24,037 nucleotides of DNA from a virus. Positions 1 to 22,585 of the stretch are shown in pieces; position 1 is the first letter of the stretch, and the number at the start of each line of letters is the position of its first letter. The stretch is from UHGV virus genome UHGV-0103738; one strand, given 5' to 3'. The position numbers were made by a program, and so were the translations under genes. Below the pieces are notes generated by a model. That model was given only the letters and a program-made list of their open reading frames with translations. It did not search any database and was not told the origin of the DNA.

Positions 1-1032
1 ATGGGCGGTGAGTGCTTCATTGTTTTAACCAAAGAAAACAATGAGTTAAATGTTTCTATCCTGTCTGCTGATAAGTGCGACTGGACGCTCAACCGTGAAG
101 TAAGCAAAGAACGTGCGATATATCAAGGTGTGGAGTATGACGTGAACACAATGCGCCCTGTTGCATTTTGGTTTCGTAAAATCAACCTACTGACTCAGAC
201 TTACACAGGTGATAACTATCGCGTAGATGCTTCGCAAGTATGCCATTATTATCAACCACTTGCGGCTGAATCTCTGCGTGGCGTGACTGACTTCCTGCCA
301 GTGATTAAGGATATCGCACATCAAGACGCATTCCGCGAAGCTGTACTGGTCCAGAAACGAATTTCAGCTAGTAGCATGGCGTTCATCGAGCGTCCGAAAG
401 ATTCTGGTGACGATTTTGATACTGGTGAAGATGATGAACAATATCAAGCGCCGGAAGTTATTCACGATTTCGCGCCGGGTACTATTCAGGAATTGCCGGA
501 AGGGGCAACGATCAAGAGTATTCAATCCACGCAAAGCGGCGATGATTTCAATTCATTTAACGCTGGTATGTTCACTAGCATAGCAATGGGTCTTGGCGTG
601 TTCAATCAGGGCTTAACTGGCGATACTAGCCAAATAAATTACAGCGCTGCACGCTACGGCGAATTACTTCAAAGAACGCGCGTTAAAGCACTGCAAAACA
701 AATTAATTGAAACAGTGGTATTGCCAATTTTCGAAGCGTATCTACGCCATTATTCCGCGCGTGGTATTGTTCCGATTCGTATTACGGCAATTCCGCATAT
801 TATCGAGAACACTACTATTATTCGTCCGCGTTTTGAATCCGTCGATCCAATTAAAGACGTAAACGCCGAGATTGCTTTAATTGATAAAGGACTTAAATCA
901 CGTACTGCCGTTATATTAGAACGTGGTGACGATCCTGAAAAAGTATTCTCAGAGATTCAAGCCGAAAAGAGCGCACTAAATATTATCGTTGATGGTGAGG
1001 GTGAAGAAAAAAATTCCCCAGCCGATCCCTAA
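1..1032 (+). CDS. Portal protein, probably C-terminal part (ORF is open to the window start)
   Basis: 343-codon ORF ending 47 nt upstream of the prohead protease/capsid gene, which is the usual portal position. Acidic C-terminal region. No ribosome-binding context can be assessed at position 1, so the true start may lie upstream. Confidence 0.5.
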   Translation: MGGECFIVLTKENNELNVSILSADKCDWTLNREVSKERAIYQGVEYDVNTMRPVAFWFRKINLLTQTYTGDNYRVDASQVCHYYQPLAAESLRGVTDFLPVIKDIAHQDAFREAVLVQKRISASSMAFIERPKDSGDDFDTGEDDEQYQAPEVIHDFAPGTIQELPEGATIKSIQSTQSGDDFNSFNAGMFTSIAMGLGVFNQGLTGDTSQINYSAARYGELLQRTRVKALQNKLIETVVLPIFEAYLRHYSARGIVPIRITAIPHIIENTTIIRPRFESVDPIKDVNAEIALIDKGLKSRTAVILERGDDPEKVFSEIQAEKSALNIIVDGEGEEKNSPADP

Positions 1033-1078
1033 TAACCAACGGGGGGCGCAATGCCCCCAATTAATTAAAGGTGATTAA

Positions 1079-3091
1079 ATGCTTAAATTTCGCCGCGAAC
1101 TTAACGGTTACGGTGGAGTTATTAACGAAGGGCATAACGATCAATACGAATTTGAAATTGCTTTCTCCAGTGAACAGCCTTATCAGCGCCAATTCTGGGA
1201 TGAGCAAAATCAAGAAATGGTGGTATTAGATGAAATTCTGGTACATACACCGGAAGCGGTTGATCTGTCTCGTCTGAATAATAACGCTCCGTTGCTGTTT
1301 AATCATAATTTCGATAATCATTTAGGTGTCGTTTGTAACGCTCGAATCGATGCGGATAAAGTAGGCCGTGCGACCGTTAGATTCTCTAAGCATGGCACTT
1401 TGGCTAATGATATTCGTAATAAAGTCATTGAAGGTACGATGGAAAAAATTTCTGTCGGTTATGACATTAAAGAATATCACATCGATTATGCCAAAGGACA
1501 ATTGATTGTTACTAAGTTTGTTCCTTTCGAATTAAGTTTTGTTACGGTCCCGGCGGACGATTCGGTCGGTTTAAATCGCTCTCTAAATACTATCACAGTT
1601 AATTTGGAGGCTAAACGCGATATGACTAAAGAACAAATTGAAGAAATCAAAGAAGAACAAGAATCCGCTCAGGTTGAAGAAACTCCGGTAGAAGAAAATA
1701 AAGAACCGGAAGTTGAAGAAACTCAAGAGCGCCAAGTTGAAGAGAATAAAGAAGATGAAAATCTCGAAGACGGAAAAGACGCTGAACATCCTGAAAGTGT
1801 TGATGATGATAGTTCAACTGTTCGGGAAACAGAAGAAGTAAAAGAAGAACGTGAAGCTGCTCCGGTTGAAGAAGAAAAAACCGAGGAAGTGGCTGAACGT
1901 TCCGAAGAAGACGAATTAGAAATTCGCGAAATTGCACGCGAGTTAAATATTAACGAAGACGATGAAGAATTTAAACGCGCATTGGCAAATAAAGAAATTA
2001 CGCCGGAAGCATTCCGCACTAAGGCACTAAATAACATTACCAATGCTCAACGTAATAACGAACAAATTAATAAGGAACAAATCATGGAAAAAACTTTCGA
2101 TCTTAATAACGTAATCCGCTCCCTGGTAGATGGCGACGTGCTCGGCGCTAACGAAGCTGAATATTCCGCAATGGCTGCTACTGCAACTATGCAGCGTGGT
2201 CGTGCTGCTCGTGGTGGCTCTGTATTCGTTCCGGCTGCTGCTATGCGTGCTGCTGCTGATGGCAACACCAAAGCTAATCTGGTTGCTATCACTGACGAAA
2301 AACTGATGACTGAATCCTACATCGAAATGCTGTTGCCTCAGAGTGTTTTAGGCCGCCTCGGGGTGACTGTTTATAGTGGCTTGACTTCTCCGACCGCTAT
2401 TCCAAAAATGACTAAATCCAGCGTTGACGCTTTCGGATTCGTTGACGAAAATGGCGCTGCCCCCGAGTCACATGCGGAATTTTCGAACGTGAAACTGTCT
2501 CCGAAAACTTTTGCTGGTGGCAACCCGATCAGCCGTCAGTCGCTGAAAACCGTTCCGGGCATCGCTACCCTGATCACCGATCACATTAACAAATCTGTTC
2601 GGATCAAACTGGAACAACTGATTCTGTCTGATAAAGAAAATGCTCGTGGTCCGGCTGGTCTGGTTAAGCAACTGGTAGACGCTAGCCGCGTTACCAAGAA
2701 AGCTGCTTTCTCTTATAAAGACTTCCTGAAAGAAATTGCAGCACTGACTGACGCTGGCGTTCCTGCTCAGGCGATCAAGTTTGCGATGAGCGGTGCAACT
2801 GCTGCTGAACTGGAATCTACCCTGAAAGATAACGGCGTTTCCGGTTATATCATCGAAAACGGCAAACTGGCTGGTTACGAAGTAGTTACTTCTGGCGTTA
2901 TTCCGGCAGACCACATCGTTCTGGGTGACTTCTCCGGTATTACTATCGGTGAGTGGGGCGGTCTGGAACTGGATATGGATCTAACTACATACCGTGATCG
3001 TGGTGCGGTAGTGCCTCGTATCTTTGTAGATTTGGACTACGTTGTAGCACAGCCGGAAGCTCTGAAAGTTCTTCACATCTCCGCTGAATGA
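1079..3091 (+). CDS. Prohead protease / acidic scaffold-like linker / major capsid protein encoded in one reading frame (670 aa)
   Basis: Shine-Dalgarno AAAGGTGA at 1067-1074, ATG at 1079. N-terminal ~170 aa carry HK97-family prohead protease-like motifs (ISVGY, ELSFVTVPADD). A Glu/Lys-rich low-complexity segment spans ~1620-2080. The C-terminal ~335 codons switch to codons typical of highly expressed genes (ctg, cgt, ggt, gct, ttc), as expected for a major capsid protein. Stop is TGA at 3089-3091. Confidence 0.8.
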   Translation: MLKFRRELNGYGGVINEGHNDQYEFEIAFSSEQPYQRQFWDEQNQEMVVLDEILVHTPEAVDLSRLNNNAPLLFNHNFDNHLGVVCNARIDADKVGRATVRFSKHGTLANDIRNKVIEGTMEKISVGYDIKEYHIDYAKGQLIVTKFVPFELSFVTVPADDSVGLNRSLNTITVNLEAKRDMTKEQIEEIKEEQESAQVEETPVEENKEPEVEETQERQVEENKEDENLEDGKDAEHPESVDDDSSTVRETEEVKEEREAAPVEEEKTEEVAERSEEDELEIREIARELNINEDDEEFKRALANKEITPEAFRTKALNNITNAQRNNEQINKEQIMEKTFDLNNVIRSLVDGDVLGANEAEYSAMAATATMQRGRAARGGSVFVPAAAMRAAADGNTKANLVAITDEKLMTESYIEMLLPQSVLGRLGVTVYSGLTSPTAIPKMTKSSVDAFGFVDENGAAPESHAEFSNVKLSPKTFAGGNPISRQSLKTVPGIATLITDHINKSVRIKLEQLILSDKENARGPAGLVKQLVDASRVTKKAAFSYKDFLKEIAALTDAGVPAQAIKFAMSGATAAELESTLKDNGVSGYIIENGKLAGYEVVTSGVIPADHIVLGDFSGITIGEWGGLELDMDLTTYRDRGAVVPRIFVDLDYVVAQPEALKVLHISAE

Positions 3092-3217
3092 ACTCCTGTA
3101 GAACCATCTGAACCTTCCCCCGATTTGGGGGAAGAAAATCTGATTCCTGAACCGGAAGAAGAATCCCAGACGGTTAAGGCGAAAGCCACAGCTAAAAAAC
3201 AGCGTAAAACTAAAGAA
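3092..3217 (+). other. Putative in-frame TGA read-through extension of the capsid protein (42 codons, TAA at 3218-3220)
   Basis: The frame stays open for 42 codons after the TGA, encoding TPVEPSEPSPDLGEENLIPEPEEESQTVKAKATAKKQRKTKE. It ends 5 nt before a terminator hairpin. A parallel arrangement follows the tail tube gene. Confidence 0.45.
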
Positions 3218-3225
3218 TAATAATT

Positions 3226-3252
3226 AGCCCTGCCTAACGGTGGGGCTTTTTT
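3226..3252 (+). terminator. Rho-independent terminator after the capsid gene
   Basis: Stem AGCCCTGCC / GGTGGGGCT (9 bp, two G-U pairs), loop TAAC, followed by a T-run. Near-identical to the hairpin at 9094-9121. Confidence 0.75.
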
Positions 3253-3282
3253 GTATGTAAATACTCCATAAAGGGGGTAACT

Positions 3283-3573
3283 ATGTTCAAATTATCAGAA
3301 TCACAATTAAATCGAATGTTTAAAAGTGCTCCTGTATTTTCGGTGGAAGGTGGTAAATCAATTCGTGCTTATCATGAAATTACCACTACCGACGAACAAG
3401 GGGTAATTACAGAATCAGAATTTCTATTTTGTCGTGAGGGAGACTTAAATCAGGGTGATGTTGTCATTGTAGACGGTGAACGCTTCAAAGTTCAATACGT
3501 TAAGCGCAATGGTGATAATACTTCTGATTGCTTTATTGCTCGTGCAGGGGGTACACATGCTCGCTACCGTTAA
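3283..3573 (+). CDS. Hypothetical virion protein (head-tail connector or head completion candidate, 96 aa)
   Basis: SD AAAGGGGGTAA directly upstream of ATG 3283. Sits between the capsid and tail genes. No recognisable motif. Confidence 0.5.
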   Translation: MFKLSESQLNRMFKSAPVFSVEGGKSIRAYHEITTTDEQGVITESEFLFCREGDLNQGDVVIVDGERFKVQYVKRNGDNTSDCFIARAGGTHARYR

Positions 3574-4901: not shown

Positions 4902-7900
4902 ATGCAGTCGATCCAATTTAAACGCACACAAACGGCTGGTAAAAAACCAACGCCGGAACAATTATCACAGGGCGAGATCGCCTTACAACTGGCGGACCAT
5001 GTGATTTACACCAAAGATAAAAATAATAACGTAGTCCAAATTAGTGTTTCTCCAGAAAAACACGCTGAACTGAATACGAAAGTAGACACCAACAAGGTCA
5101 ACACAGATAAAGTCATTTCAGCAAATAAAACCGAAGCCGCTAATAATCTGGCTACGGCTAAAGCTGAACTTAATCAGACTATCACTTCTACCCGTGATAC
5201 TCTCAATGCTTCAATCACTGCTGGCGATACCGCAGCCAACAAGCGAATTGATGCTTTGACTACCACAGTAGGTAACAATAAAACCGAAGCGGCTAACGCT
5301 CTGGCGGCTGCTAAGACTGAACTGAATCAGACTATTACTTCAACCCGCGATACTATCAACGCGACAATTAACAAGAACAAGACAGATATTAATGCGCGAG
5401 TTGATCAGACGAATACCAACGTTACCAACTTAACGAATACTGTCGCAGCAAATAAATCAGCAATAGAAAAGACGGTAGCGGATAATAAGAAAGATGCGGA
5501 CACGAAGATCACCAATCTTACTAGTACGGTCTCTGCGAATAAGACAGCCATTGAAAGAACTGTTGCAAATAACAAGGCCAGTGCCGATGCCGCAATTGCC
5601 GCAGCTAACCAGCGAATTGATTCTATTGAAGGTAGTGCCGATGCTGCTTACATCAAGAAGAATACCAATACTAAGCATGGTGGGTATCTGTTAAGCAAGA
5701 CAGCTAACTATTTGGAAGACCAGACAGCGAGAGATCTTAACTACTTTGGTGCTTTCCGTACCAATGGTCAAGATGGACTCATGGATCTAACTCTTAATGT
5801 TCCTCATTCTGCCGGTAAAGCGCACGGTCGCGGATTTACTTTCCGTTATGCGTCTGGTGGATCTCGTGTTGAAACCTATGGTTTTGATAGAGAAGGACAG
5901 AAGAACTTTAGCTATAAGATGTATCACGAAGGTGATAAGCCGACTCCTGGCGAGATTGGCGCATACACCAAAGCCGAAGTTGATAAGATGTTTGTTAAAA
6001 ACGTCGTTATGTCTGTTCCCAATTCTAGCGAAAACGTATCTGCATATTTCAAATTGGCAACCGCAACAATTCCACAAAACGGGCGTAGTGTGTTTTTCCG
6101 TATTCATGGTGGTAATGGTTACAACGTTACGGCATATGATCAGGTTGACGTAGTAGAAATTCTTCTGCGTAGTGGTAACGATAGACCTAAAGGTCTTAAC
6201 GTAATTGCATACCGTAGAAATACAAACAAAGATTTTGAGGTATTTGCTGTCAATACTTCCGGTGATAACTATGATATCTACGTGAAATATCAGCGTTATA
6301 CCGATAACGTTATTGTCGAATATGGGAAATCTGTTTATGTAAGTTTGACGGTTTATGATACGCCGGAAGCCACGTTAATTAAACCTTCCGTTGGTGTTAT
6401 CGGTGGTCGCAACGTAACTCTTTTTAATACTGAAAATAAACGTGGTGTGTTAAGTTTTGATGATAACACACAAAACAGCTATGACATTGTTCACTTGAGT
6501 AACGATAAAGGTACTGGACGGAAATATATTCGTAAATTCCGTAGCAACTATAACGAAATGGTTTGGCATGAAACCGTTCAGGGTGCTGTATATCGTCTTG
6601 CTACCGGTGCTACAGATTCTACAGAAGTTATTAGAATTGATTCTAATAGTGCAATACCGGGTAATTATAAAGGATATGTAATTACTGGTAAAATGGAATT
6701 GCACGGTAGTGGTAATGCGATGACTTTACATCGCCAGACTGGTCAAGCTGCATATATGGCGTGGTGGGATCGTCGTGATGGTAAAAACCAACGTAGTGGT
6801 TATATCGGTCATGCGGATGGTACTAGTGATGGTTTTGTGTGGCGTAATGATGTTGGTGCTAACTCATTTGATTTGGAAGGTAGTGGACAAGTAAATTTGA
6901 CTACAGGAAAAACAAAAATTGTATATACCAATGGTCAATATTATTCCGCTAACGCTGATGCATTCCGTATGATTTACGGTAAGTATGGTGCATTCTGGCG
7001 AAATGATGGTGGTAAAGTTTATCTGTTGTCTACTGCCGAAAATGATAGATTTGGTGGTTGGAACGGAAACCGACCATTCATTTACGATTTGACTAACGGT
7101 AAAGTTACTTTAGGTGGTGATGGTAACGAAGGCGCATTAGTTCTCGAAAGAGATAGCCGTGCTGCTCGATTTGCTGGCGATACATATATCGAGAAAGGGT
7201 TTTTAACCTTCTCTGCTGGGAGAAGCGGATCTCGTGATTATATTCGATTTAATCATTGGGGTGATAGTAATAATGCCCGTGATAACGTTTTGTACCTAGA
7301 AGATAGTCAAGGTAGACATTTTAGCACAGAGCGTGCGATGGGTACTGGTGCTCTTAAAGCAAACTTCTTAGGCGATCTTGAAGTTGGTGGTAAGTTTACT
7401 TGGGGTAAAAATACAGCTACATCCAGCTTTAATATTCGTGCTTGGGGTAACGATAGTCGTAAACAAGTATTAGAATGTGGTGATGAAAGTGGTTGGCATT
7501 GGTATACCCAACGTCCGGGCGGTCCGGGTACTACGGCAATTGAGTTTGCCATCAACGGTACTGTTAAGCCTCAAGCAATTCACACTGGCGGTAATATCAC
7601 GCTTAACGGTGCTGATATTGAATTTCGTCGCACTGGTAATAAGCATATCTGGTTTAGAGATCCAACTGGATTAGAACTAGGTTTGATGTATTCTGATGAT
7701 GCTGGTGTTATTCGCTTCCGTGGTCAGAAACAAGCCCAGACGTGGAAACTTGCGGATAAGATGATTCATCTTGAATCTGGTAGCGTCGGCGGATCTGATA
7801 AAGGTTTGATTCGTGGTAACGTTTCTGGTGGTAGCTGGTCTAGTTGGCGCGATCGTGCATCCGGCTTGCAAGTTGATTGCCCTCAATCAACCGATTCCGC

Positions 7901-8432
7901 TCATAACATCTGGAAAGCTACTCATTGGGGTAAATATCACATTGCAGCAATGGGTGTACACGTTCCTAGCGGTACTATCGGTAACGCTCTTGTTCGTCTG
8001 CATGTTAACGATACTAACTTTGACTTTAACGCTGCTGGTGACTTTACCGCAGGTCGTAACGGTAGCTTTAACGATGTTTACATTCGCTCTGACTCCCGTT
8101 TGAAGATTAACAAGGAAGAATTACAGGACGGTGCATTAGAGAAAGTAAACTCACTGAAAGTCTACACCTACGATAAAGTTAAATCTCTTTCCGATGACAC
8201 GGTGATTAAACGCGAAGTAGGTATTATTGCTCAGGATCTGGAAAAAGTATTGCCGGAAGCAGTAGGTATTCAATCCACCGAAGATCCAGAAAATCCAGAA
8301 GCAATCAAGACTATTTCTAACTCTGCTGTCAATGCTTTAATCATCAAGGCTATGCAGGAAATGGACGCCAAATATAAAGCACAGATCGAAGCATTACAGA
8401 AAGAAATTGCCGAACTGAAAGCAACTAAATAA
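4902..8432 (+). CDS. Side (L-shaped type) tail fibre with a C-terminal intramolecular chaperone / self-cleaving domain (1176 aa)
   Basis: SD GAGGTGA. N-terminal fibre-type motifs, a repeat-rich N/T/A shaft with 51-aa repeats, and a long Gly-rich beta region. The C-terminal ~114 aa begin RSDSRLKINKEE and end in a coiled coil, as in peptidase S74-type chaperone domains of phage fibres and endosialidases (Ser/Lys spacing S1063/K1068). Confidence 0.8.
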   Translation: MQSIQFKRTQTAGKKPTPEQLSQGEIALQLADHVIYTKDKNNNVVQISVSPEKHAELNTKVDTNKVNTDKVISANKTEAANNLATAKAELNQTITSTRDTLNASITAGDTAANKRIDALTTTVGNNKTEAANALAAAKTELNQTITSTRDTINATINKNKTDINARVDQTNTNVTNLTNTVAANKSAIEKTVADNKKDADTKITNLTSTVSANKTAIERTVANNKASADAAIAAANQRIDSIEGSADAAYIKKNTNTKHGGYLLSKTANYLEDQTARDLNYFGAFRTNGQDGLMDLTLNVPHSAGKAHGRGFTFRYASGGSRVETYGFDREGQKNFSYKMYHEGDKPTPGEIGAYTKAEVDKMFVKNVVMSVPNSSENVSAYFKLATATIPQNGRSVFFRIHGGNGYNVTAYDQVDVVEILLRSGNDRPKGLNVIAYRRNTNKDFEVFAVNTSGDNYDIYVKYQRYTDNVIVEYGKSVYVSLTVYDTPEATLIKPSVGVIGGRNVTLFNTENKRGVLSFDDNTQNSYDIVHLSNDKGTGRKYIRKFRSNYNEMVWHETVQGAVYRLATGATDSTEVIRIDSNSAIPGNYKGYVITGKMELHGSGNAMTLHRQTGQAAYMAWWDRRDGKNQRSGYIGHADGTSDGFVWRNDVGANSFDLEGSGQVNLTTGKTKIVYTNGQYYSANADAFRMIYGKYGAFWRNDGGKVYLLSTAENDRFGGWNGNRPFIYDLTNGKVTLGGDGNEGALVLERDSRAARFAGDTYIEKGFLTFSAGRSGSRDYIRFNHWGDSNNARDNVLYLEDSQGRHFSTERAMGTGALKANFLGDLEVGGKFTWGKNTATSSFNIRAWGNDSRKQVLECGDESGWHWYTQRPGGPGTTAIEFAINGTVKPQAIHTGGNITLNGADIEFRRTGNKHIWFRDPTGLELGLMYSDDAGVIRFRGQKQAQTWKLADKMIHLESGSVGGSDKGLIRGNVSGGSWSSWRDRASGLQVDCPQSTDSAHNIWKATHWGKYHIAAMGVHVPSGTIGNALVRLHVNDTNFDFNAAGDFTAGRNGSFNDVYIRSDSRLKINKEELQDGALEKVNSLKVYTYDKVKSLSDDTVIKREVGIIAQDLEKVLPEAVGIQSTEDPENPEAIKTISNSAVNALIIKAMQEMDAKYKAQIEALQKEIAELKATK
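5124..5429 (+). repeat. Two tandem 153-nt (51-codon) repeat units inside the fibre shaft
   Basis: AATAAAACCGAAGC(C/G)GCTAA...CTGAA(C/T)T(T/G)AATCAGACTAT(C/T)ACTTC recurs at 5124 and 5277. Protein units are NKTEAANNLATAKAELNQTITSTRDT... and NKTEAANALAAAKTELNQTITSTRDT... Confidence 0.7.
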
Positions 8433-8488
8433 TAAAAGTCGGGGGACTAGTTCCCCCGTAATAACAATTTTAATTAAGGGGTAATTCT

Positions 8489-8962
8489 ATGTCTCAGCAA
8501 TTCAAAGATATTTTTACTGGTGGTCTGGTAAGTCTGTTCTATCACGCCGATACCACTAACACCGACCTTGCCGATGAAGCATACGAAGAAATTAAAGAGT
8601 GTGCTGGTTTTCCTGAAACTGGTATCGAGCGCGGTACTGTAGAAGTTAAATCCTTCTCTTCTCAGTATAACCGTAAACTGGTAGGTAAACTGAACGTTCC
8701 TGATCTGACTCTGACCGTTAACTACATTCCTGGTGATGCGGTACATGAGAAGCTCATAAAGGCTGCCGAAGACGGTACGCGTATTCAAATCAAAGTTGAA
8801 TACTATGTTGACGCCGGAAAACAGACTGGTATTCGCACTGCTTTCAACGGCTTTATTTCTAAAGTTGCTATGAACGGTGGCGATGAAGAAGTGGTAACGA
8901 AAGAGTTTACCTTTGCTGTTGATGGTGCTCCGCTGAAACAGCAAATCTTCACTGCCGGATGA
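8489..8962 (+). CDS. Major tail tube protein (157 aa)
   Basis: SD AAGGGGTAA. Strongly biased highly-expressed codon usage. Lies upstream of the chaperone and tape-measure genes and is followed by a strong terminator. Stop is TGA at 8960-8962. Confidence 0.7.
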   Translation: MSQQFKDIFTGGLVSLFYHADTTNTDLADEAYEEIKECAGFPETGIERGTVEVKSFSSQYNRKLVGKLNVPDLTLTVNYIPGDAVHEKLIKAAEDGTRIQIKVEYYVDAGKQTGIRTAFNGFISKVAMNGGDEEVVTKEFTFAVDGAPLKQQIFTAG

Positions 8963-9085
8963 ACTAACGAAGAACTTCCTTTACCAGAACCGGAACCACT
9001 GCCGGAACATGAAGCGGTGGTGATTCCAGAAGTAGAAGAAGTTACGGCGAAAGCCACAGCAAAACGAGGCCGCAAGGCTAAGAAT
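8963..9085 (+). other. Putative in-frame TGA read-through extension of the tail tube protein (41 codons, TAA at 9086-9088)
   Basis: Open in frame after the TGA, encoding TNEELPLPEPEPLPEHEAVVIPEVEEVTAKATAKRGRKAKN. Same TGA-ACT context and same Pro/Glu-linker plus basic-tail architecture as the capsid extension. Ends 5 nt before the terminator. Confidence 0.45.
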
Positions 9086-9093
9086 TAATTTTA

Positions 9094-9121
9094 AGCCCTG
9101 CCTTAATGGTGGGGCTTTTTT
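9094..9121 (+). terminator. Rho-independent terminator after the tail tube gene
   Basis: Stem AGCCCTGCC / GGTGGGGCT, loop TTAAT, then a T-run. Same stem as the terminator at 3226-3252. Confidence 0.75.
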
Positions 9122-9136
9122 ATTGGAGTAATCAAA

Positions 9137-9643
9137 ATGGCAAATGTCGTTAAAGTTCCTGGCTGGATCGGGTCATCTGCTGTATCGGTGACGGGTAAGC
9201 GATGGATGAAAGAAGCATTAACAGCTTTAAAAGTTCCGGCTCCGCGTAATATGTCGGCAATGGCTGGTCGTGGTATGGATACGGTTGTAGCTACTGCATC
9301 GTGGTCTACTTCATTGGGTAATAACTGGGGTGTAACTGCTTCAAACTATCCTGTTTCCGGTATGCAAAGCAAAGGATCTATGGAGAACCCCGAAAACGTG
9401 GGCGTAGGGCGTCTGGTTGGCGTTATCGTTGGTCAATTCAATGGCGGTACTCCTACTATGGCTGTATATCTCCAGAACGGTAGAGCGGGGAATATAACCG
9501 TTAATTTGGGTGGTGCTGCTGTCACTGTTCCTTATAACAGTATGCAAAGTGGTTTTCATTACTATTGGTTAAGCAATCCTCCGGCTGCTTTCCTTACCAA
9601 CATTAAGAAGACTGGCACTAAGCAGACTTTGAAAATCTCTTAA
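9137..9643 (+). CDS. Hypothetical tail-associated protein (168 aa, Gly/Ser/Thr/Asn-rich)
   Basis: ORF with upstream GGAG, located between the tube gene and the chaperone genes. Composition suggests a beta-rich structural protein. No specific motif recognised. Confidence 0.45.
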   Translation: MANVVKVPGWIGSSAVSVTGKRWMKEALTALKVPAPRNMSAMAGRGMDTVVATASWSTSLGNNWGVTASNYPVSGMQSKGSMENPENVGVGRLVGVIVGQFNGGTPTMAVYLQNGRAGNITVNLGGAAVTVPYNSMQSGFHYYWLSNPPAAFLTNIKKTGTKQTLKIS

Positions 9644-14120: not shown

Positions 14121-14540
14121 ATGCTAAAAACTAGGCTTATCACCGATTACATCAATTCTTTAATAGGTCAGGAGTTCGTTCAAGGCGAGAATGATTGCAA
14201 TCTCATTGCATGTAAGATCATCGATATTCTCGCTGGTACTGACCTATATAATTCTCTTTATAAAAAATATTCAACTAAAGAAGAAGGCTTGAAAATCTGC
14301 AAAGAATTAAGCGGATATTCAAACATCCTTCAACCAATTAAGAAACATTTCAAATTAGTCACTGATGATTTACAGGACGGCGACTTACTGGTCACAGCCC
14401 ACAAATTAGGAAACCGTAATTATTATTCCGTAGTTCCTCATTATTCCGGTTATGGCCTCGTTGAAGAAGATGGTATCTGGATGACCATTCCTGTTTCAGA
14501 CATTGACTATGAACAAGTTTATAGATTCGGGGGTGAATAA
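14121..14540 (+). CDS. Tail assembly protein, gpK-like with possible NlpC/P60-type Cys motif (139 aa)
   Basis: GGAGG at 14108-14112 sits 8 nt before ATG 14121. ENDCNLIAC resembles the catalytic Cys motif of NlpC/P60 domains. Located immediately upstream of the J-like gene, with a TAATG overlap at 14538-14542. Confidence 0.5.
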   Translation: MLKTRLITDYINSLIGQEFVQGENDCNLIACKIIDILAGTDLYNSLYKKYSTKEEGLKICKELSGYSNILQPIKKHFKLVTDDLQDGDLLVTAHKLGNRNYYSVVPHYSGYGLVEEDGIWMTIPVSDIDYEQVYRFGGE

Positions 14541-17500
14541 TGGGATTTGAAATATTGGTAGGCGCGGTTATTGCTGGTGCGTCTGCTGGGATGGCTGCTG
14601 CTGCAACATTTTCTGTTATGACCGCAGTCGCTATCGGTATGGCTGCTGGTGCAATGACCTTGATCGCTTCCACTGTAGGCGCACCAAAAACACCGAAAGT
14701 ACAAAGCCCAGATAATGCGGTGACACTAGGAACATCAAACGATCCGAAGACAGTATTACCCGTTCTTTTCGGTACTACCCGCACGGGTGCAATCTGCGTT
14801 TACAAAGCAATTTCTAAGCAAGAAAACAATAAGTTAGTGCAAATCTTCGCAATTGCAGAGGGTGAAATCGACCATTACAAAGCACTATTCATCGATAACA
14901 AAAATGTTCTTGTTGGTAAGAACATGACGATCCGTGATGGTGTACTGGACAAAGGCAACATTAAAGAAGAATACCGGAAAGTTTTAGAGGTTGAGTTCCG
15001 CACTGGTAAGAATCCTAACACCGCTTTGTCACTGGCAAAACGTCACTTAGGGTCAGACTGGAACGACAACTACAAAGGCAATGGTATTGCGACCATGTGT
15101 ATTGTGTTGCGTCGTGATGACAAATCTCTTGCTGCTGGTGTTGATATTCTCCAACCAAATAGCCAGGTAGCGGTAGACGTTTGCGGGTTAAAGATTCGTA
15201 ACCTTGAAACCAATGCTATTGAGGCTAGCACTAACGGCGTGGACCAGATTTTCCATTATCTGACAAATACAAAATATGGTCTTAGTGTACCAATTGAAAA
15301 CATCAACGTTGATTCATTCCTGAAAGTACGTAAGCAAGTACGCCAGATGGATTTGCATTCAAACGGTGCATGTGATCCGAACGCCAGCTTTAAAGAGAAC
15401 TTGACTAGCCTTATGCAGACTTTCGGCGGGGTGATGTTCGAATCCTTTGGACGTATTACGCTGAAACTGGATGCTCCTGATATTGTTAAGCATACCTTCA
15501 ATGAAGACAATATCATGATGGGTAAGGTATCACTGAAAACAGGTGGCACTAACGGTTATTTCAATACCATTAACGCGATGTATCAAGAACCATCAATCGA
15601 CTATTCAGAGCAAATGCTACGTTATCCGGCTGATGCTGAAAACGATGCTACTATTCGTCAAGATGGTCGAATTATCGCTAAAGATATTGAATATCGTTTT
15701 GTTAAGTCTAAAGCCCAGATTGATAAACTTGCGAGTATTGAGCGAAATAAATCTCGTATCACTCAGGTTATCAGCTTTATGACTACTGACGCATTCACTG
15801 CCGAAGTTTGGGACGTTATCAGCGTAACCTATGATGAATTGAAGCTGAATAATTCCTTATGGCGTATTACTGCAATTGATCGCTCGATTGATTCTGGTAT
15901 TGCTGGGATGATGACTATCACCGCTACAGAATATAATTCTCAGGTTTATACTGACCTGAACTATGCGGCTAACCCAGATAACCGACCAAGTGGTTTACCG
16001 GATTCAATGACAGTACAGAAGCCTACTAATTTCAGAATTAAGGCAACTGGCGAGACGATTTACGGTAAAAACGTTACTTTGACATGGGATGCACCAGAAG
16101 ATTTTAACCGCTACGGCTTCCAGATTGATTACCGTGTAAGCGGATCACCTAACTGGATTAAGTTGGGACAGACTTCACAGCAAATTTTCAGTGTCAATGC
16201 ACTGGCAAAAGATCGTTCCTACGATTACCGAGTTTGTGCTTTCGGTATCATCGCGAGATCCGATTGGGTAGAACTGATTAACCAGAATCCTACTGTTACC
16301 TATGAATTGCCGACTCCGGTTATTCGAATCAAAAATCAGGGTAGCACGCCAGGAACTTTCGAAGGTAATGATCTGATTATCGAATGGGAAAATCAGCAAC
16401 AATTAGATGTTGAGATCAACGGTGAAACTAACAAGTTTAGTGACCTGTTTGAAGCATACATTATCAAGGTGACTAACAAGGCTGGTAAGTCTATTCAGTA
16501 CCGTACCCGCGATCCTGAATCATGGACTTATACGCTTGATATGAACCAGTTTAACGGCCTTTCGCGTCAACTTACGGTAGAAGTATCAGCTAAGGGCTAT
16601 AACAACTCAGAGAGCGCCCCAGCGCGTTTAGTGGCTATCAACCCACAACATAAGCCAATGAAAGGTTTTAGTGCGCGTGGTGGCTTTAATACTGCGTTTG
16701 TTAGCTGGGCGGATGACGTAGAACATGACTATGCAGGGTCAATCATCCAGTATGCAACCGACAACACTTTCTCAGATGCAAGGGCAGTAAGTACGAATAG
16801 TGTTAGCCATACTTCCTTTGATATTGCTGACGGTGATTATTATATCCGTGGTGCTCACTACGATATTTTCGGTATGGATGATGCTGTTTGGTCTGAACCG
16901 TATTTCATGCAAATGAAGTCTACGATTAGTTGGGACGATCAGGACAAAGAAGCACTGGAAGACCTGATCGGTTTACAAGATCGCTTAGATGAAACTATCG
17001 CGGATGCTATTAAGCAAGCTGGCGCTAATGCCGATGCTAAAATTGATGCAATGCATAAGCAAATCACTACCGAGACGGGTAAAACTGTTCAAGCCTCAGC
17101 CGATACCTTAAAGAGTCTGATTGCTTCTGGTGATAAGGCAAGTTCAACTAAGATTGATCAGGTTAAAGCTGAACTGAAAGGCGATATCACCAAAGAAGTT
17201 AGCGCCTCCGCTACAACCCTGAAACAAGCAATTGCAACCAGTGAGGCAGCAAGCGCAAGTAAGATTGATCAAGTTCGGGTAGAAATGGATGGCAAGATTG
17301 CTGGTGTGAATCAGGAAGCAGATGTAAAAATCGATGCTTTGAAAGGAACCATTAACAGCAAATACAATCTGGCGGTTAATGCAGATGGTCGCGTGGCTGG
17401 TATTCATATGAGCGCAACCAATGATCCGGCAGAACCGACAAGAATCATCTTTACGGCTGATAAAATCGCGGTAGCTCCACAGAATGGATCGGGGGTATGT

Positions 17501-18316
17501 CCGTTTGGTATCGAAGGTAACAAGGTTTATCTCGATAATGCGATGATTCGTAATGCTGCAATTGGTACAGCCCAGATTAATGATGCGGCGATTACTACTG
17601 CCAAGATCGGCAATGCCGCAATTAACAGCGCGAAGATTCAGGACGGGGCAATCACTAACGCCAAGATCGTAAACGGTGCAATTGATAACGCCAAAATTGG
17701 TAACTATATCCAGTCTTCCAACTGGAACGGATCAACCGGATGGCATATCAACAAGAACGGGTCCGCTACGTTCATGAACGCTACCGTTAAAGGTAATATC
17801 ACGGCTGATTCTGGTACTCTGAACAACGTCACGATTAACTCTAGCTGTGTTATTAAGGGTATGCTTGAAGCTACTCAGGTTAAGGGTGATTTCGTTAAGG
17901 TGATTGGTCGTAAGTTCCCACACCGTGATGTTAACGTTGATAATGGTTATGGCGGCTATCCGCAAGGTACAGTAACCGTTCGCGTTGAAGATGATCACAA
18001 GTTCGATCGTCAAATCGTTATTCCGGCGATTAGTTTTGGTGGATTGCGAGCGCGTGAAGGGTCGAACAATAATACCTATTACGACACCTGTCGCCTGATT
18101 GTTCGTAAGAATGGGTCAGAGTTGTATAATAGGGCGTATGGCGGTAATACTGGTCTTTACTCAGGTGTTATTGATATGCCAGCGGGTAAAGGTGCTGTGA
18201 CCTTGACCTTTGAAGTGCAATCAAGCGCAATCAACAACTGGACGCCTAGCACATGGATCAGTGATTTAACTGTAATGGTAACTAAAAAAGCCACTACGGG
18301 TATTACTGTTTCTTAA
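14540..18316 (+). CDS. Central tail fibre / tip attachment protein, lambda gpJ-like, with an N-terminal gpI-like hydrophobic domain (1258 aa)
   Basis: C-terminal ~150 aa resemble the remembered lambda J C-terminus (TLNNVTINSSC..., VEDDHKFDRQIVIP, VIDMPAGKGAVTLTF, DLTVMVTKK). Fibronectin III-like segment around 16000-16300. N-terminal Ala/Gly-rich hydrophobic region followed by APKTPKVQ...VLPVLFG, resembling the lambda gpI C-terminus. Confidence 0.85.
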   Translation: MGFEILVGAVIAGASAGMAAAATFSVMTAVAIGMAAGAMTLIASTVGAPKTPKVQSPDNAVTLGTSNDPKTVLPVLFGTTRTGAICVYKAISKQENNKLVQIFAIAEGEIDHYKALFIDNKNVLVGKNMTIRDGVLDKGNIKEEYRKVLEVEFRTGKNPNTALSLAKRHLGSDWNDNYKGNGIATMCIVLRRDDKSLAAGVDILQPNSQVAVDVCGLKIRNLETNAIEASTNGVDQIFHYLTNTKYGLSVPIENINVDSFLKVRKQVRQMDLHSNGACDPNASFKENLTSLMQTFGGVMFESFGRITLKLDAPDIVKHTFNEDNIMMGKVSLKTGGTNGYFNTINAMYQEPSIDYSEQMLRYPADAENDATIRQDGRIIAKDIEYRFVKSKAQIDKLASIERNKSRITQVISFMTTDAFTAEVWDVISVTYDELKLNNSLWRITAIDRSIDSGIAGMMTITATEYNSQVYTDLNYAANPDNRPSGLPDSMTVQKPTNFRIKATGETIYGKNVTLTWDAPEDFNRYGFQIDYRVSGSPNWIKLGQTSQQIFSVNALAKDRSYDYRVCAFGIIARSDWVELINQNPTVTYELPTPVIRIKNQGSTPGTFEGNDLIIEWENQQQLDVEINGETNKFSDLFEAYIIKVTNKAGKSIQYRTRDPESWTYTLDMNQFNGLSRQLTVEVSAKGYNNSESAPARLVAINPQHKPMKGFSARGGFNTAFVSWADDVEHDYAGSIIQYATDNTFSDARAVSTNSVSHTSFDIADGDYYIRGAHYDIFGMDDAVWSEPYFMQMKSTISWDDQDKEALEDLIGLQDRLDETIADAIKQAGANADAKIDAMHKQITTETGKTVQASADTLKSLIASGDKASSTKIDQVKAELKGDITKEVSASATTLKQAIATSEAASASKIDQVRVEMDGKIAGVNQEADVKIDALKGTINSKYNLAVNADGRVAGIHMSATNDPAEPTRIIFTADKIAVAPQNGSGVCPFGIEGNKVYLDNAMIRNAAIGTAQINDAAITTAKIGNAAINSAKIQDGAITNAKIVNGAIDNAKIGNYIQSSNWNGSTGWHINKNGSATFMNATVKGNITADSGTLNNVTINSSCVIKGMLEATQVKGDFVKVIGRKFPHRDVNVDNGYGGYPQGTVTVRVEDDHKFDRQIVIPAISFGGLRAREGSNNNTYYDTCRLIVRKNGSELYNRAYGGNTGLYSGVIDMPAGKGAVTLTFEVQSSAINNWTPSTWISDLTVMVTKKATTGITVS

Positions 18317-20856: not shown

Positions 20857-22536
20857 TTAAATTCCAAATTCTTGTAATGGACCTGGTATTTCTTCTTCTG
20901 GTTTCCAGTTCTTATCTGTCAGCATGTCTAAACATGGATGCAGAACAAGCCCGTTACTCTCCAGAATCTGCCTATCATTGATAGTCTTCAAATCAACGAA
21001 GATCCGGCCTTTCCTCGGTCCTCTTGAATTTTCTATTACAACTCTCTGGGTCTTGCCATCGATGTATTCCAGTACAAACAAGTTTTTGTACTTGTCAATC
21101 CTGCTACACCCGATCCGTTTTAGAGCTTGCTTAATCTTAAACCGGACCTTAATGCGATCCTCGTTGTAAACATCTTCTAAATCAAATTCTGCGAGCTTCT
21201 CCCAGCCTTGAGAGTCAACAGAATACATTTCCTCTTCTGCCATCTTAAGTTGATTGTAGAGTGTTTCACGCTCGCTATTGAGGGTAGTAATCTGATCGGC
21301 TAGCTCCTTCGTTGCTCCTGTCATAGCAGAAAGGGTAATCAGGTTATCAATCTTGCGTGATATTTCATCAATCTGTACTTTCAAAGCCGGAACCGGATTA
21401 GCCTTATCTTCAGCAATCCAGATTTTATCAGCCAGCAATTGCAATACAGCTTTCTCTAATTGGTCGCCGCGAAAACTCCAGTTTGTATGCACACATTCAA
21501 TACGACTAGAGCGCATTGCATCGCATGAATAACGATATTGGTTAGGCCGTCTGTTTGTTCCTTTCACCTTAACCATAGCGGAACCGCAATGTTCACATTT
21601 CAATAGACCAACACCACTAAGCAAGGGAATAGGTTTAGCTTCTTCTTTGTCTCCAAAGTTACATGCTCTAACACCAATGCTTTTCTTAAGGTGATAAAAC
21701 TCAGCGTCATCTAGCACACGAGGATAATAATCCTTTAACTCATACTTAACGCCATCTACAGAGATTTCCTTGATACCAATCAAAGCGCGGGTATGGAACA
21801 ACCTTTCAATCATTGCCCGTGACCAGTTTGAATGCCTCTTGTGACTTGCGGCTGGTGGTGGTGTGTATGTCGCGTTAAGGTGATCCAGTATCTCGGCGGT
21901 TGACCGTCCATTCCTGCGTAATTCCACAACTTCCTGAACAATAGGGAAGAAGACCGGATGAGGAAGCACATAACCAGATGTGGTATCAGTCCACCACATA
22001 TTCTTTCCAATTTCCTCGATTGCAACAGCCGGATTTTGTGGATTTTCTTGATGAGCTTTAATCTTAATCAGTGCGCTTGAGTTAGTACGATTGCGCTTAG
22101 TCTGGCTTTCCTCATTACCACGGATGAATAAAAGGATGGAGAACATCAGGTCCATCGGGTTAGCGGTAACAGTATCAAGCGAGTAGATCTTGTTATCCAT
22201 GCCAGTAACAATGGTTATCCCCCTACGGATGATTGAAAGGAATAACTCCTGTGCACTGACAATATCGGCACGGGATAAACGGTCCAAGTTTTCGATGAAT
22301 AGCCAGCTACCAACAGGAACGGATCTACCTATTGCATCAAGGAAACGAGATAGCGCCCCTGTTTTGGAGTTAGCACCCTTAAACGCAGATACACCCAGAT
22401 CCTGATAATCATTTACCAGTTCAAGGTCATACTTTACCGCAATCTCTCTAGCCATCCTGATTTGTCGTTCATAACTCGAACCATCATTCTGACGCATAGA
22501 CGAGAAGCGAATATACGAATACAGTTTAGTTTTCAT
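20857..22536 (-). CDS. Large serine recombinase (integrase/resolvase family, ~559 aa from ATG 22536)
   Basis: N-terminal catalytic motif YIRFSSMRQ (Arg/Ser/Gln spacing of serine recombinases) and ENLDRLSR. Central recombinase region. Cys cluster CEHCGSAMV...YRYSCDAM...ECVH (zinc-ribbon-like), then a coiled coil. Track start is a TTG at 22551; the first ATG is at 22536. Confidence 0.85.
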   Translation of the reverse strand: MKTKLYSYIRFSSMRQNDGSSYERQIRMAREIAVKYDLELVNDYQDLGVSAFKGANSKTGALSRFLDAIGRSVPVGSWLFIENLDRLSRADIVSAQELFLSIIRRGITIVTGMDNKIYSLDTVTANPMDLMFSILLFIRGNEESQTKRNRTNSSALIKIKAHQENPQNPAVAIEEIGKNMWWTDTTSGYVLPHPVFFPIVQEVVELRRNGRSTAEILDHLNATYTPPPAASHKRHSNWSRAMIERLFHTRALIGIKEISVDGVKYELKDYYPRVLDDAEFYHLKKSIGVRACNFGDKEEAKPIPLLSGVGLLKCEHCGSAMVKVKGTNRRPNQYRYSCDAMRSSRIECVHTNWSFRGDQLEKAVLQLLADKIWIAEDKANPVPALKVQIDEISRKIDNLITLSAMTGATKELADQITTLNSERETLYNQLKMAEEEMYSVDSQGWEKLAEFDLEDVYNEDRIKVRFKIKQALKRIGCSRIDKYKNLFVLEYIDGKTQRVVIENSRGPRKGRIFVDLKTINDRQILESNGLVLHPCLDMLTDKNWKPEEEIPGPLQEFGI

Positions 22537-22545
22537 ACCATTTCC

Positions 22546-22585
22546 AAACAAAAACGCCCCTACCGCGTATTATAACGATAGGGGC
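22546..22585 (-). terminator. Hairpin with T-run immediately upstream of the recombinase start (– strand)
   Basis: 10-bp stem whose one imperfect position is a G-U pair only in the – strand transcript, followed on the – strand by GTTTTTGTTT. The loop contains TTATAAT. Confidence 0.5.

Follow-up and report, generated by a model that had tools for sequence, protein, structure and literature searches.

A protease-scaffold-capsid fusion gene in an E. coli prophage, with candidate nested in-frame starts and a candidate readthrough extension

The locus and its features

The DNA analyzed here (the window) is the whole 24,037-nucleotide stretch of virus genome UHGV-0103738. At 1079..3091 (+), between a lambda-family portal gene upstream and head-tail attachment and tail genes downstream, it carries one open reading frame (ORF) of 670 codons. 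This ORF runs from ATG to TGA with no stop inside, and its full-length product has a predicted mass of 74.1 kDa. From the N-terminus onward, the product consists of a protease, an acidic spacer, a helical scaffold-like domain and an HK97-fold capsid domain. This ORF comprises the entire head-maturation module of a lambda-like E. coli prophage, and on the basis of start signals and codon usage, we consider it fairly likely that it is read as nested in-frame genes. The original prediction described a single frame without an intervening stop and proposed either a self-processing polyprotein or nested genes. Its coordinates and both domain identities hold (ORF call, Pfam and PHROG 617), and its proposal can now be sharpened toward nested in-frame starts by internal ribosome-binding signals with ATG codons, by an enrichment of Met and by steps in codon usage. 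The features of the gene are listed below, with residue numbers (aa) referring to the 670-residue product.

1069..1073 (+): weak Shine-Dalgarno (SD)-like AGGTG, 5 nt upstream of ATG 1079 (pairing -4.3 kcal/mol)
1139..1573 (+): prohead serine protease domain of the S78 family with an assemblin/gp21 fold (aa 21-165)
1304..1306 (+): CAT codon of His76, the predicted catalytic His
1451..1453 (+): TCT codon of Ser125, the predicted catalytic Ser, in a VSVGY context
1583..1891 (+): disordered acidic spacer (aa 169-271), about 33% Glu, variable in length among copies
1606..1610 (+): internal SD-like GGAGG, 11 nt before ATG 1622
1622..1624 (+): in-frame ATG (Met182), candidate internal start (product of 489 aa, 53.4 kDa)
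1904..2260 (+): helical scaffold/delta-like domain (aa 276-394)
2072..2086 (+): AAGGA (2072-2076) with in-frame ATG (2084-2086, Met336), second candidate start (product of 335 aa, 35.4 kDa)
2258..2308 (+): hinge, predicted maturation cleavage region (aa 394-410)
2309..3088 (+): HK97-fold capsid domain (aa 411-670)
3089..3091 (+): TGA stop in the context GAA-TGA-A
3092..3223 (+): candidate readthrough extension of 42 sense codons (TPVEPSEPSPDLGEENLIPEPEEESQTVKAKATAKKQRKTKE), followed by TAATAA
3114..3134 (+): 8-bp GC-rich hairpin within the extension
3226..3253 (+): intrinsic terminator with a 9-bp stem and a T-tract

Domain architecture

The PHROG 617 profile ("major head protein") aligns with the product end to end (aa 21-665 with profile positions 24-621 of 626, E 2.7e-92). 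PHROG 4523, which covers fusions of this kind as well, bears the name "major head and protease protein". The structure was modeled with AlphaFold2 from a 47-sequence alignment, and the mean predicted local distance difference test score (pLDDT) is 80.8. In the model, a β-rich protease domain (aa 21-165, pLDDT 87-97) is followed by an acidic segment that is disordered except for one short predicted helix at aa 184-196 (aa 169-271, pLDDT mostly < 50), a helical domain (aa 276-394, pLDDT 80-94), a hinge of low pLDDT (aa 396-410) and a capsid domain of high pLDDT (aa 411-670).

Profile searches place both ends of the protein in the families that had been anticipated. For the N-terminal domain, Pfam Peptidase_S78 (PF04586) matches at aa 40-162 (E 1.8e-10, 41.6 bits with a cut-off of 21). 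His76 and Ser125 are found without exception in 47 full-length and 26 N-domain sequences, which have 24-59% identity to the query; among the 120 close relatives, the Ser motif is present in every one and the His motif in 116. These two residues are predicted to be catalytic. The protease domain was modeled on its own, since the full-length model gave capsid matches alone when compared with the PDB, and fold comparison of this separate model found the assemblin/gp21 fold. When PDB chains were searched with the sequence of this domain, no match was obtained. The cut-off of TIGR01543, the HK97 gp4 equivalog, was missed (32.7-36.1 bits, as compared to 59). By these profile scores, the protease is a member of the broad S78 family, outside the narrow HK97 gp4 equivalog group. 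The ratio of nonsynonymous to synonymous substitution rates (dN/dS) among the E. coli copies is 0.16 in this domain, indicating purifying selection.

The region between protease and capsid differs in part from what was expected, namely a single Glu/Lys-rich linker of about 150 residues. It is indeed rich in Glu (31% of aa 182-335, which have a net charge of -36), while Lys makes up only 7%. It is also not one linker; the AlphaFold2 model resolves it into the disordered acidic part (aa 169-271) and the helical domain (aa 276-394). The capsid domain does not start at residue 336, because the HK97 fold begins near aa 411 and Met336 lies within the helical domain.

The capsid part belongs to the HK97-fold families. 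Pfam Phage_capsid (PF05065) matches at aa 414-666 (E 6.6e-25, 88.5 bits with a cut-off of 24.2), and TIGR01554 matches aa 336-670 with 73.6 bits (cut-off 27.5). The solved capsid protein of R4C (8gta) is matched at the sequence level with E 3.7e-25. A Foldseek search of the PDB returned the same structure first (E 5.7e-18), followed by the capsid proteins of RcGTA, HK97, D3 and SaPI1, with TM-scores of 0.6-0.7 relative to the target. The suggested structure prediction thus recovered the HK97 fold for this part as well as the assemblin/gp21 fold for the protease. In the TIGR01554 alignment, residue 411 corresponds to HK97 gp5 position ~121, so that the equivalent of the gp5 cut between Lys103 and Ser104 would be near residue 394, at the hinge. 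From this alignment, that with 8gta and the low pLDDT of the hinge, we infer maturation cleavage at about aa 394-410. The mature capsid protein is predicted to have about 276 aa and 29 kDa. The paper on the R4C structure is silent on protease and processing, and a CBASS preprint and a paper on an Stx2 phage have no bearing on the fusion.

An intact and widespread fusion

The window represents a prophage that is present in 55 of 5,426 complete E. coli genomes, with 80-95% identity over the first 4 kb. PGAP annotated the gene as one unbroken coding sequence (CDS) of 2001-2013 nt in eight additional complete E. coli genomes, the hosts of which (cattle, pigs, humans, chicken and dog) lived on several continents. 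The copy in E. coli H2 (NZ_CP028733) is 100% identical to the window over 2700-3300. Public collections contain 120 near-identical full-length proteins (657-672 aa). A HMMER scan of 1.84 billion cluster representatives (50% identity) gave 457 matches at E ≤ 1e-30, and 149 of the best 150 of these are full-length (562-893 aa). Among the E. coli copies, dN/dS is 0.29 in the helical domain, 0.20 in the capsid domain and 0.55 in the acidic spacer.

A lost stop codon or frameshift that joined two genes, or a decaying prophage, had to be considered as the origin of the long frame. No evidence in favor of this was found, although there is one short relative of 297 aa (P0155). The same open frame is, however, present in every independent genome examined, in the 120 near-identical proteins and in hundreds of clusters at 50% identity. 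The folded domains are under purifying selection (dN/dS 0.16-0.29), and P0155 turned out to be truncated by an IS3-family insertion. An artefact or a pseudogene is therefore hardly credible.

P0155 had been a candidate for a natural split protease/scaffold gene and was rejected as such, being a fused gene cut by the insertion. In E. coli GCA_020887765.2 (L032:3001-5064), the fused gene ends after 297 codons at an IS3-family element that has HTH_Tnp_1 and rve ORFs. This copy sits in a decaying relative of the window prophage.

Two sequence types occur among the E. coli copies at aa 289-335 (nt ~1943-2083), INEDDEEFKRALANKEIT and I--DDEELKRALAVKDMT. There are also two types of tail in the extension beyond the TGA (3197-3217), QRKTKE and VGRPPKAK, which assort independently of the long and short forms of the extension. 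These patterns in the helical domain and in the extension tail indicate within-gene recombination.

The fusion of protease, scaffold and capsid is already well catalogued, and the window gene, which is present in RefSeq, is one more member. NCBIfam has a curated model for a "prohead protease/major capsid protein fusion protein" (NF045541, scaf_prot_MCP2). The window protein scores 126 bits against it (cut-off 525) and aligns over aa 22-340 only; by this score, it is a different subfamily with the same architecture. With tblastn, the same architecture was found in phiHAP-1, VP882, RcCronus, S-CBS1, ep3, ECO1230-10, FoX and Persinger, where the fusion follows the portal gene and is annotated as one CDS, named "major head/capsid protein". 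The nearest deposited phage is Escherichia phage DCP80 (43% identity).

Internal start signals

Only two in-frame start codons within the ORF have an SD match of at least 5 nt, namely Met182 and Met336. The pair of GGAGG and ATG 1622 (Met182) is located exactly at the end of the protease domain. Its SD pairing of -9.3 kcal/mol is the strongest in the ORF (annotated start: -4.3) and belongs to the best 0.5% of codon positions. At Met336, AAGGA is found 7 nt upstream of ATG 2084, and the pairing of -6.2 kcal/mol is among the best 2.9%. Promoter-like sites in 900-3400 are not in excess over chance, so that separate internal transcripts, though conceivable, find no support and shorter products would need internal translation starts.

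Met182 is conserved in all 120 E. coli/Shigella proteins. In DCP80, the residue aligned to Met182 is also encoded by ATG and is preceded by AAGGA at a distance of 6 nt, though the encoded residues differ. For the wider family, Met counts were anchored at a conserved VPAD motif, because column-wise counts from the 151-sequence alignment are unusable in the low-complexity linker. Among 150 members, the Met density is 0.051 per residue at VPAD offsets 20-29, as compared to 0.014-0.028 elsewhere in the linker. The first Met after VPAD is found at offsets 20-29 in 68 members and at offsets 10-39 in 101. DNA was at hand for 17 genes, 11 of which have a start codon 21-43 residues past VPAD with an SD pairing of -5.6 kcal/mol or better; in eight of these 11, the internal SD is stronger than that of the annotated start. 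When compared to the other 45-codon windows of the same genes, the Fisher combined p-value is 5e-10 (2.5e-8 without the window gene), a value that overstates independence because the sequences are related.

Codon usage changes at the same place. In DCP80, the codon adaptation index (CAI) is 0.30 for aa 1-179, 0.65 for aa 180-332 and 0.67 for aa 333-666, while its portal and terminase genes have values of 0.28-0.34. This step at the internal ATG holds when Glu and Lys codons are left out. In ep3, likewise an E. coli phage, the CAI rises from 0.41 to 0.59 at Met216, which is its internal ATG. In the window, the picture is mixed, with values of 0.31 (aa 1-181), 0.53 (aa 182-275), 0.33 (aa 276-335), 0.69 (aa 336-395) and 0.58 (aa 396-670). 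The protease part differs strongly from aa 336-670 (0.31 as compared to 0.60, Mann-Whitney p 1e-8). Such steps would be expected from higher ribosome traffic past the internal start, whereas a single, equally translated polyprotein predicts none. Conservation, the family-wide pattern and codon adaptation are three independent lines in favor of Met182.

Several observations weigh against nested starts. The rise of the CAI at Met182 of the window is only partial: without Glu and Lys codons, the value for aa 182-275 drops to 0.35, the index dips at aa 276-335, and it rises mainly at Met336. The latter residue is unconserved outside E. coli prophages and falls within a predicted helix. The spacing of 11 nt between the SD and ATG of Met182 is longish, and GGGGG replaces GGAGG in 16 of 120 close relatives. 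Six of the 17 relatives have a moderate SD (two genes), a weak one (FoX1, L022 and L023) or, in L024, no start codon in that region. Finally, the relatedness of the compared sequences lessens the weight of the combined p-value.

The six relatives with a poor or no internal start lead to the first alternative, a pure self-processing polyprotein. Translation would begin solely at ATG 1079, each subunit would bring its own protease and scaffold, and the N-terminal parts would be cleaved off after assembly. The internal pairs of SD and ATG would then be relics of an ancestral gene boundary or would have arisen by chance. A single uninterrupted CDS is annotated everywhere, and the literature calls these genes simply fusions (PMC7302621, PMC8601537). 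L024, which has no usable start, and FoX1, L022 and L023 with their weak ones still keep the fusion, so that a polyprotein alone evidently suffices for some members of the family. As a general explanation, we nevertheless regard it as unlikely. Relic ATG and SD pairs would not persist at identities as low as 28-44% in a linker that is poorly conserved and prone to indels, and both the two-fold CAI step at the internal ATG (DCP80, ep3) and the CAI gap between protease and capsid in the window are left unexplained.

A second alternative assigns the main role to Met336. In this E. coli lineage, the capsid protein would mainly start there and carry a helical propeptide of ~58 aa, while the full-length and Met182 chains would be minor and would supply protease and scaffold. 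In favor of this variant, AAGGA is found 7 nt before ATG 2084 in nine of nine copies despite differing codons around it (NKEQI and IKDSK), the SD pairing is among the best of the ORF (-6.2 kcal/mol, best 2.9%), and the main CAI step of the window is near aa 340 (0.33 to 0.69). The corresponding codon is CTC in DCP80, however, for which reason Met336 was rejected as a family-wide start. Moreover, Met336 is part of a confidently predicted helix (309-339/342-351) of the scaffold-like domain. The low CAI at aa 276-335 could reflect recombination, given the two sequence types there; this part may be a recent recombinant segment. On balance, a capsid protein that starts mainly at Met336 seems improbable to us. 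As a second, lineage-specific start in addition to Met182, Met336 may still matter in the window.

Returning to nested starts led by Met182, the following scheme is proposed. Weak initiation at ATG 1079 would yield a minor 74-kDa chain that contains the protease. Stronger initiation at ATG 1622 (Met182) would yield a protease-less 53-kDa scaffold-capsid chain, and possible further initiation at ATG 2084 (Met336) would add a 35-kDa chain. One or both of these protease-less chains would be the major species and build most of the shell. All chains would be able to co-assemble because the capsid domain is identical in all of them, and co-assembly would place a few proteases, together with all acidic and helical scaffold segments, in the interior of the prohead. 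Cleavage by the His76/Ser125 protease would follow, near aa 394-410 and in the linker, and would remove all that is N-terminal of the former site, leaving a ~29-kDa HK97-fold capsid protein.

An open frame beyond the TGA

Past the TGA at 3089-3091, the frame remains open for 42 codons until it closes at TAATAA. Readthrough would add 43 aa (about 4.8 kDa). The only strong intrinsic terminator of the region (3226-3253) is positioned after this extension and not directly after the TGA. Both the TGA and the open frame 0 are kept in 16 of 16 sequences (15 E. coli copies and the relative L021), while the other two frames are closed by stops in the copies checked. The 12 distinct extension sequences have 27, 28, 32, 42 or 44 codons, and the alignment gaps between them (3, 3, 6, 39 and 48 nt) are all multiples of 3. 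The extension has a dN/dS of 0.64, which is similar to that of the acidic spacer.

The extension peptide is acidic, then basic, and most copies end with ...TAKATAKKVGRPPKAK (KKVGRPPKAK). Its GRP core between lysines looks AT-hook-like, which is a resemblance only. In L021, the capsid gene of which is ~41-44% identical, GAA-TGA-A is followed by NNEESPEEIEPLPVVTAKATAKKAGRPSKTAK. The local alignment of this extension peptide with that of L009 has a score of 73, which was reached by 0 of 2000 shuffles.

TGA-A is a leaky stop context. In L021, a hairpin with a z of -4.4 lies 13 nt past the TGA, and the short E. coli form has one of -19.8 kcal/mol at the same distance. The hairpin of the window (3114..3134), 25 nt downstream of the TGA, has a z of -1.6, which is not significant alone; it is invariant in nine aligned long-form copies and is also present in L031. 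The extension contains no in-frame ATG or GTG, and its one TTG (the codon of Leu12) has no obvious SD. No tRNA gene was found in the window or in the whole prophage locus, so that there is no phage-encoded suppressor, and 900-3400 has no Rfam match. In 13 more distant relatives, a post-stop extension was not found; most of these genes end with TAA, directly followed by a terminator.

A related case was found on contig ERR4405785_461 (L018:4376-4470, capsid protein P0122). An in-phase A-AAA-AAG slippery heptamer is located two codons ahead of the stop, and a stem-loop (z -2.6) comes after it at a spacing of 6 nt. Translated in the -1 frame, the sequence gives KKVSVIPPVTDGDGEVSVKKAKKAKAE (…GEVSVKKAKKAKAE), which is an analogous acidic-then-basic tail. 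L018 thus apparently reaches an analogous extension by a dnaX-type -1 frameshift.

The most economical reading of these sequences is a minor, extended capsid subunit that would be produced by TGA readthrough in the window prophage and by a -1 frameshift in L018. Whether readthrough gives rise to a minor, C-terminally extended capsid subunit that is made and used is, in our judgment, evenly balanced. The junction peptide is predicted to read ...HISAE-[W/X]-TPVEPSEPSPDLGEENLIPEPEEESQTVK.

Neighboring genes and related loci

The lambda-like tail cluster of the window contains a T-even-type long-tail-fibre module at 4902-9643. It codes for a fibre of 1176 aa, with domains for trimerisation (Gp34) and of the S74 chaperone type, and for a Gp38-type adhesin (9137-9643). 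The fibre and adhesin genes flank a lambda-like tail tube gene (8489-8962). Positions 5691-6000 share 97% identity with the tail-fibre gene of phage ELT4, and a GpJ-like tip protein is encoded at 14540-18316. The region 4902-9643 is a mosaic receptor-binding module.

The record of DCP80 (PQ671644.1, L001) is classed as Straboviridae/Gaprivervirus and has 141 kb. Within its first ~16 kb, however, genes for a lambda-type terminase and a portal are found together with the fused protease-capsid gene, each under the label 'hypothetical protein', and there is an unannotated gap of 540 nt after the capsid gene. This record may be a chimeric assembly or may be misclassified.

In E. coli CE0007a (L002), the prophage has on one side hicA and an antitoxin gene, hicB, that is truncated at its C-terminal end (8343-8873). 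At the other prophage end (40938-42617), a large serine recombinase is encoded, which corresponds to 20857-22551 (-) of the window. This suggests integration of the prophage into hicB.

Implications

The fusion itself is ordinary, and its expression logic is moderately interesting. Hundreds of genes for a "major capsid protein" of 600-700 aa carry a maturation protease and a scaffold. If the conserved internal start is real, such genes have two or more protein products, with consequences for annotation, for proteomics searches, for the production of virus-like particles and for how capsid-sensing defence systems are interpreted. The protease would then be loaded into proheads at a set ratio in a simple, covalent way.

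More tentatively, and with doubt slightly outweighing confidence, one 2.1-kb stretch may give rise to four or more capsid-related chains, by starts at Met1, Met182 and perhaps Met336 together with a tail added by programmed TGA readthrough. In that case, alternative starts would set the protease-to-capsid ratio, while the readthrough tail would be attached to a fraction of the capsid subunits, and a very large family that is annotated as a single 'major capsid protein' would prove to be a set of nested genes. The extension after the TGA is a candidate for programmed readthrough in a structural gene of an E. coli prophage, with the apparent -1 frameshift of L018 as a natural comparison. If confirmed, it would be, to our knowledge, the first case in which stop-codon readthrough extends the capsid protein of a double-stranded DNA (dsDNA) phage.

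Comparison with known systems

The fusion family spans the actinophage clusters EE, AN, AX, FE, CW, DM, EL, AU and CF, in which S78 protease, linker/scaffold and HK97-fold capsid follow one another as they do in the window protein. Outside E. coli/Shigella prophages, the fusion relatives are only 24-44% identical to it. In the actinophage literature, such genes are described simply as fusions ("protease-scaffold-capsid fusion", PMC7302621). Similar fusions are stated for the Rhodobacter RcC cluster (PMC8601537), the Rhodococcus CF cluster (PMC13313380), the Arthrobacter AU cluster and thaumarchaeal proviruses (PMC6563490). Our literature search, which covered few subscription-journal papers and is weak evidence of absence, found no report of an internal start or a post-stop extension in protease-capsid fusions and none of readthrough in a capsid gene of a dsDNA phage.

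In the RNA phage Qbeta, UGA readthrough extends the capsid protein (A1), and we know of no other phage with stop readthrough in a capsid gene. The window gene resembles T7 10B, A2, PSA and Qbeta A1 in that a minority of its capsid subunits would carry a C-terminal segment encoded past the stop. A further likeness would be that related phages arrive at equivalent extensions through different types of recoding. Among dsDNA phages, capsid extensions are known to arise by frameshifting in T3 and T7 (10A/10B, -1), Lactobacillus A2 (-1), Listeria A118/A500 (-1) and PSA (+1) (PMC5009743). The window candidate differs from these in that it would use readthrough. Its type of extension is short (27-44 aa), acidic then basic, and is not an Ig-like domain.

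The likeness to HK97 gp4/gp5 comprises the Pfam S78 protease, the capsid fold and an N-terminal scaffold-like part, which is cleaved off in HK97 and is predicted to be so here. The predicted Met182 product would resemble HK97 gp5, consisting of delta and capsid. The HK97 protease is, however, encoded by a separate gene and its product is recruited non-covalently, whereas the protease of the window is covalently attached upstream. The region before the predicted cleavage is also longer (about 212 aa from Met182, as compared to 102 aa in HK97) and, unlike that of HK97, contains a disordered poly-Glu stretch of ~100 aa.

For nested starts, the closest parallels are lambda C/Nu3 and UL26/UL26.5 of herpes simplex virus 1 (HSV-1). 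In both, protease and scaffold genes are nested in-frame: the long product has the protease at its N-terminus, and an internal start leads to a second product that lacks the protease and is more abundant. The C-terminus common to the two directs both into the same assembly. The lambda protease belongs to a family other than S78. For HFTV1 gp17/gp17.5, Ribo-seq demonstrated the internal start, and the abundance of the C-terminal domain is 7.8x that of the N-terminal one (bioRxiv 10.64898/2026.09.13.751334). The start was thus measured in HFTV1, while for the window we infer it from sequence. The logic is probably alike in all of these systems, with the capsid on the same polypeptide in the case of the window. 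If so, the strategy of nesting protease and scaffold genes, as used by lambda, herpesviruses and HFTV1, would extend to this layout. In lambda, HSV-1 and HFTV1, the shared C-terminal part is the scaffold alone and the capsid gene is separate, whereas in the window scaffold and capsid would be shared.

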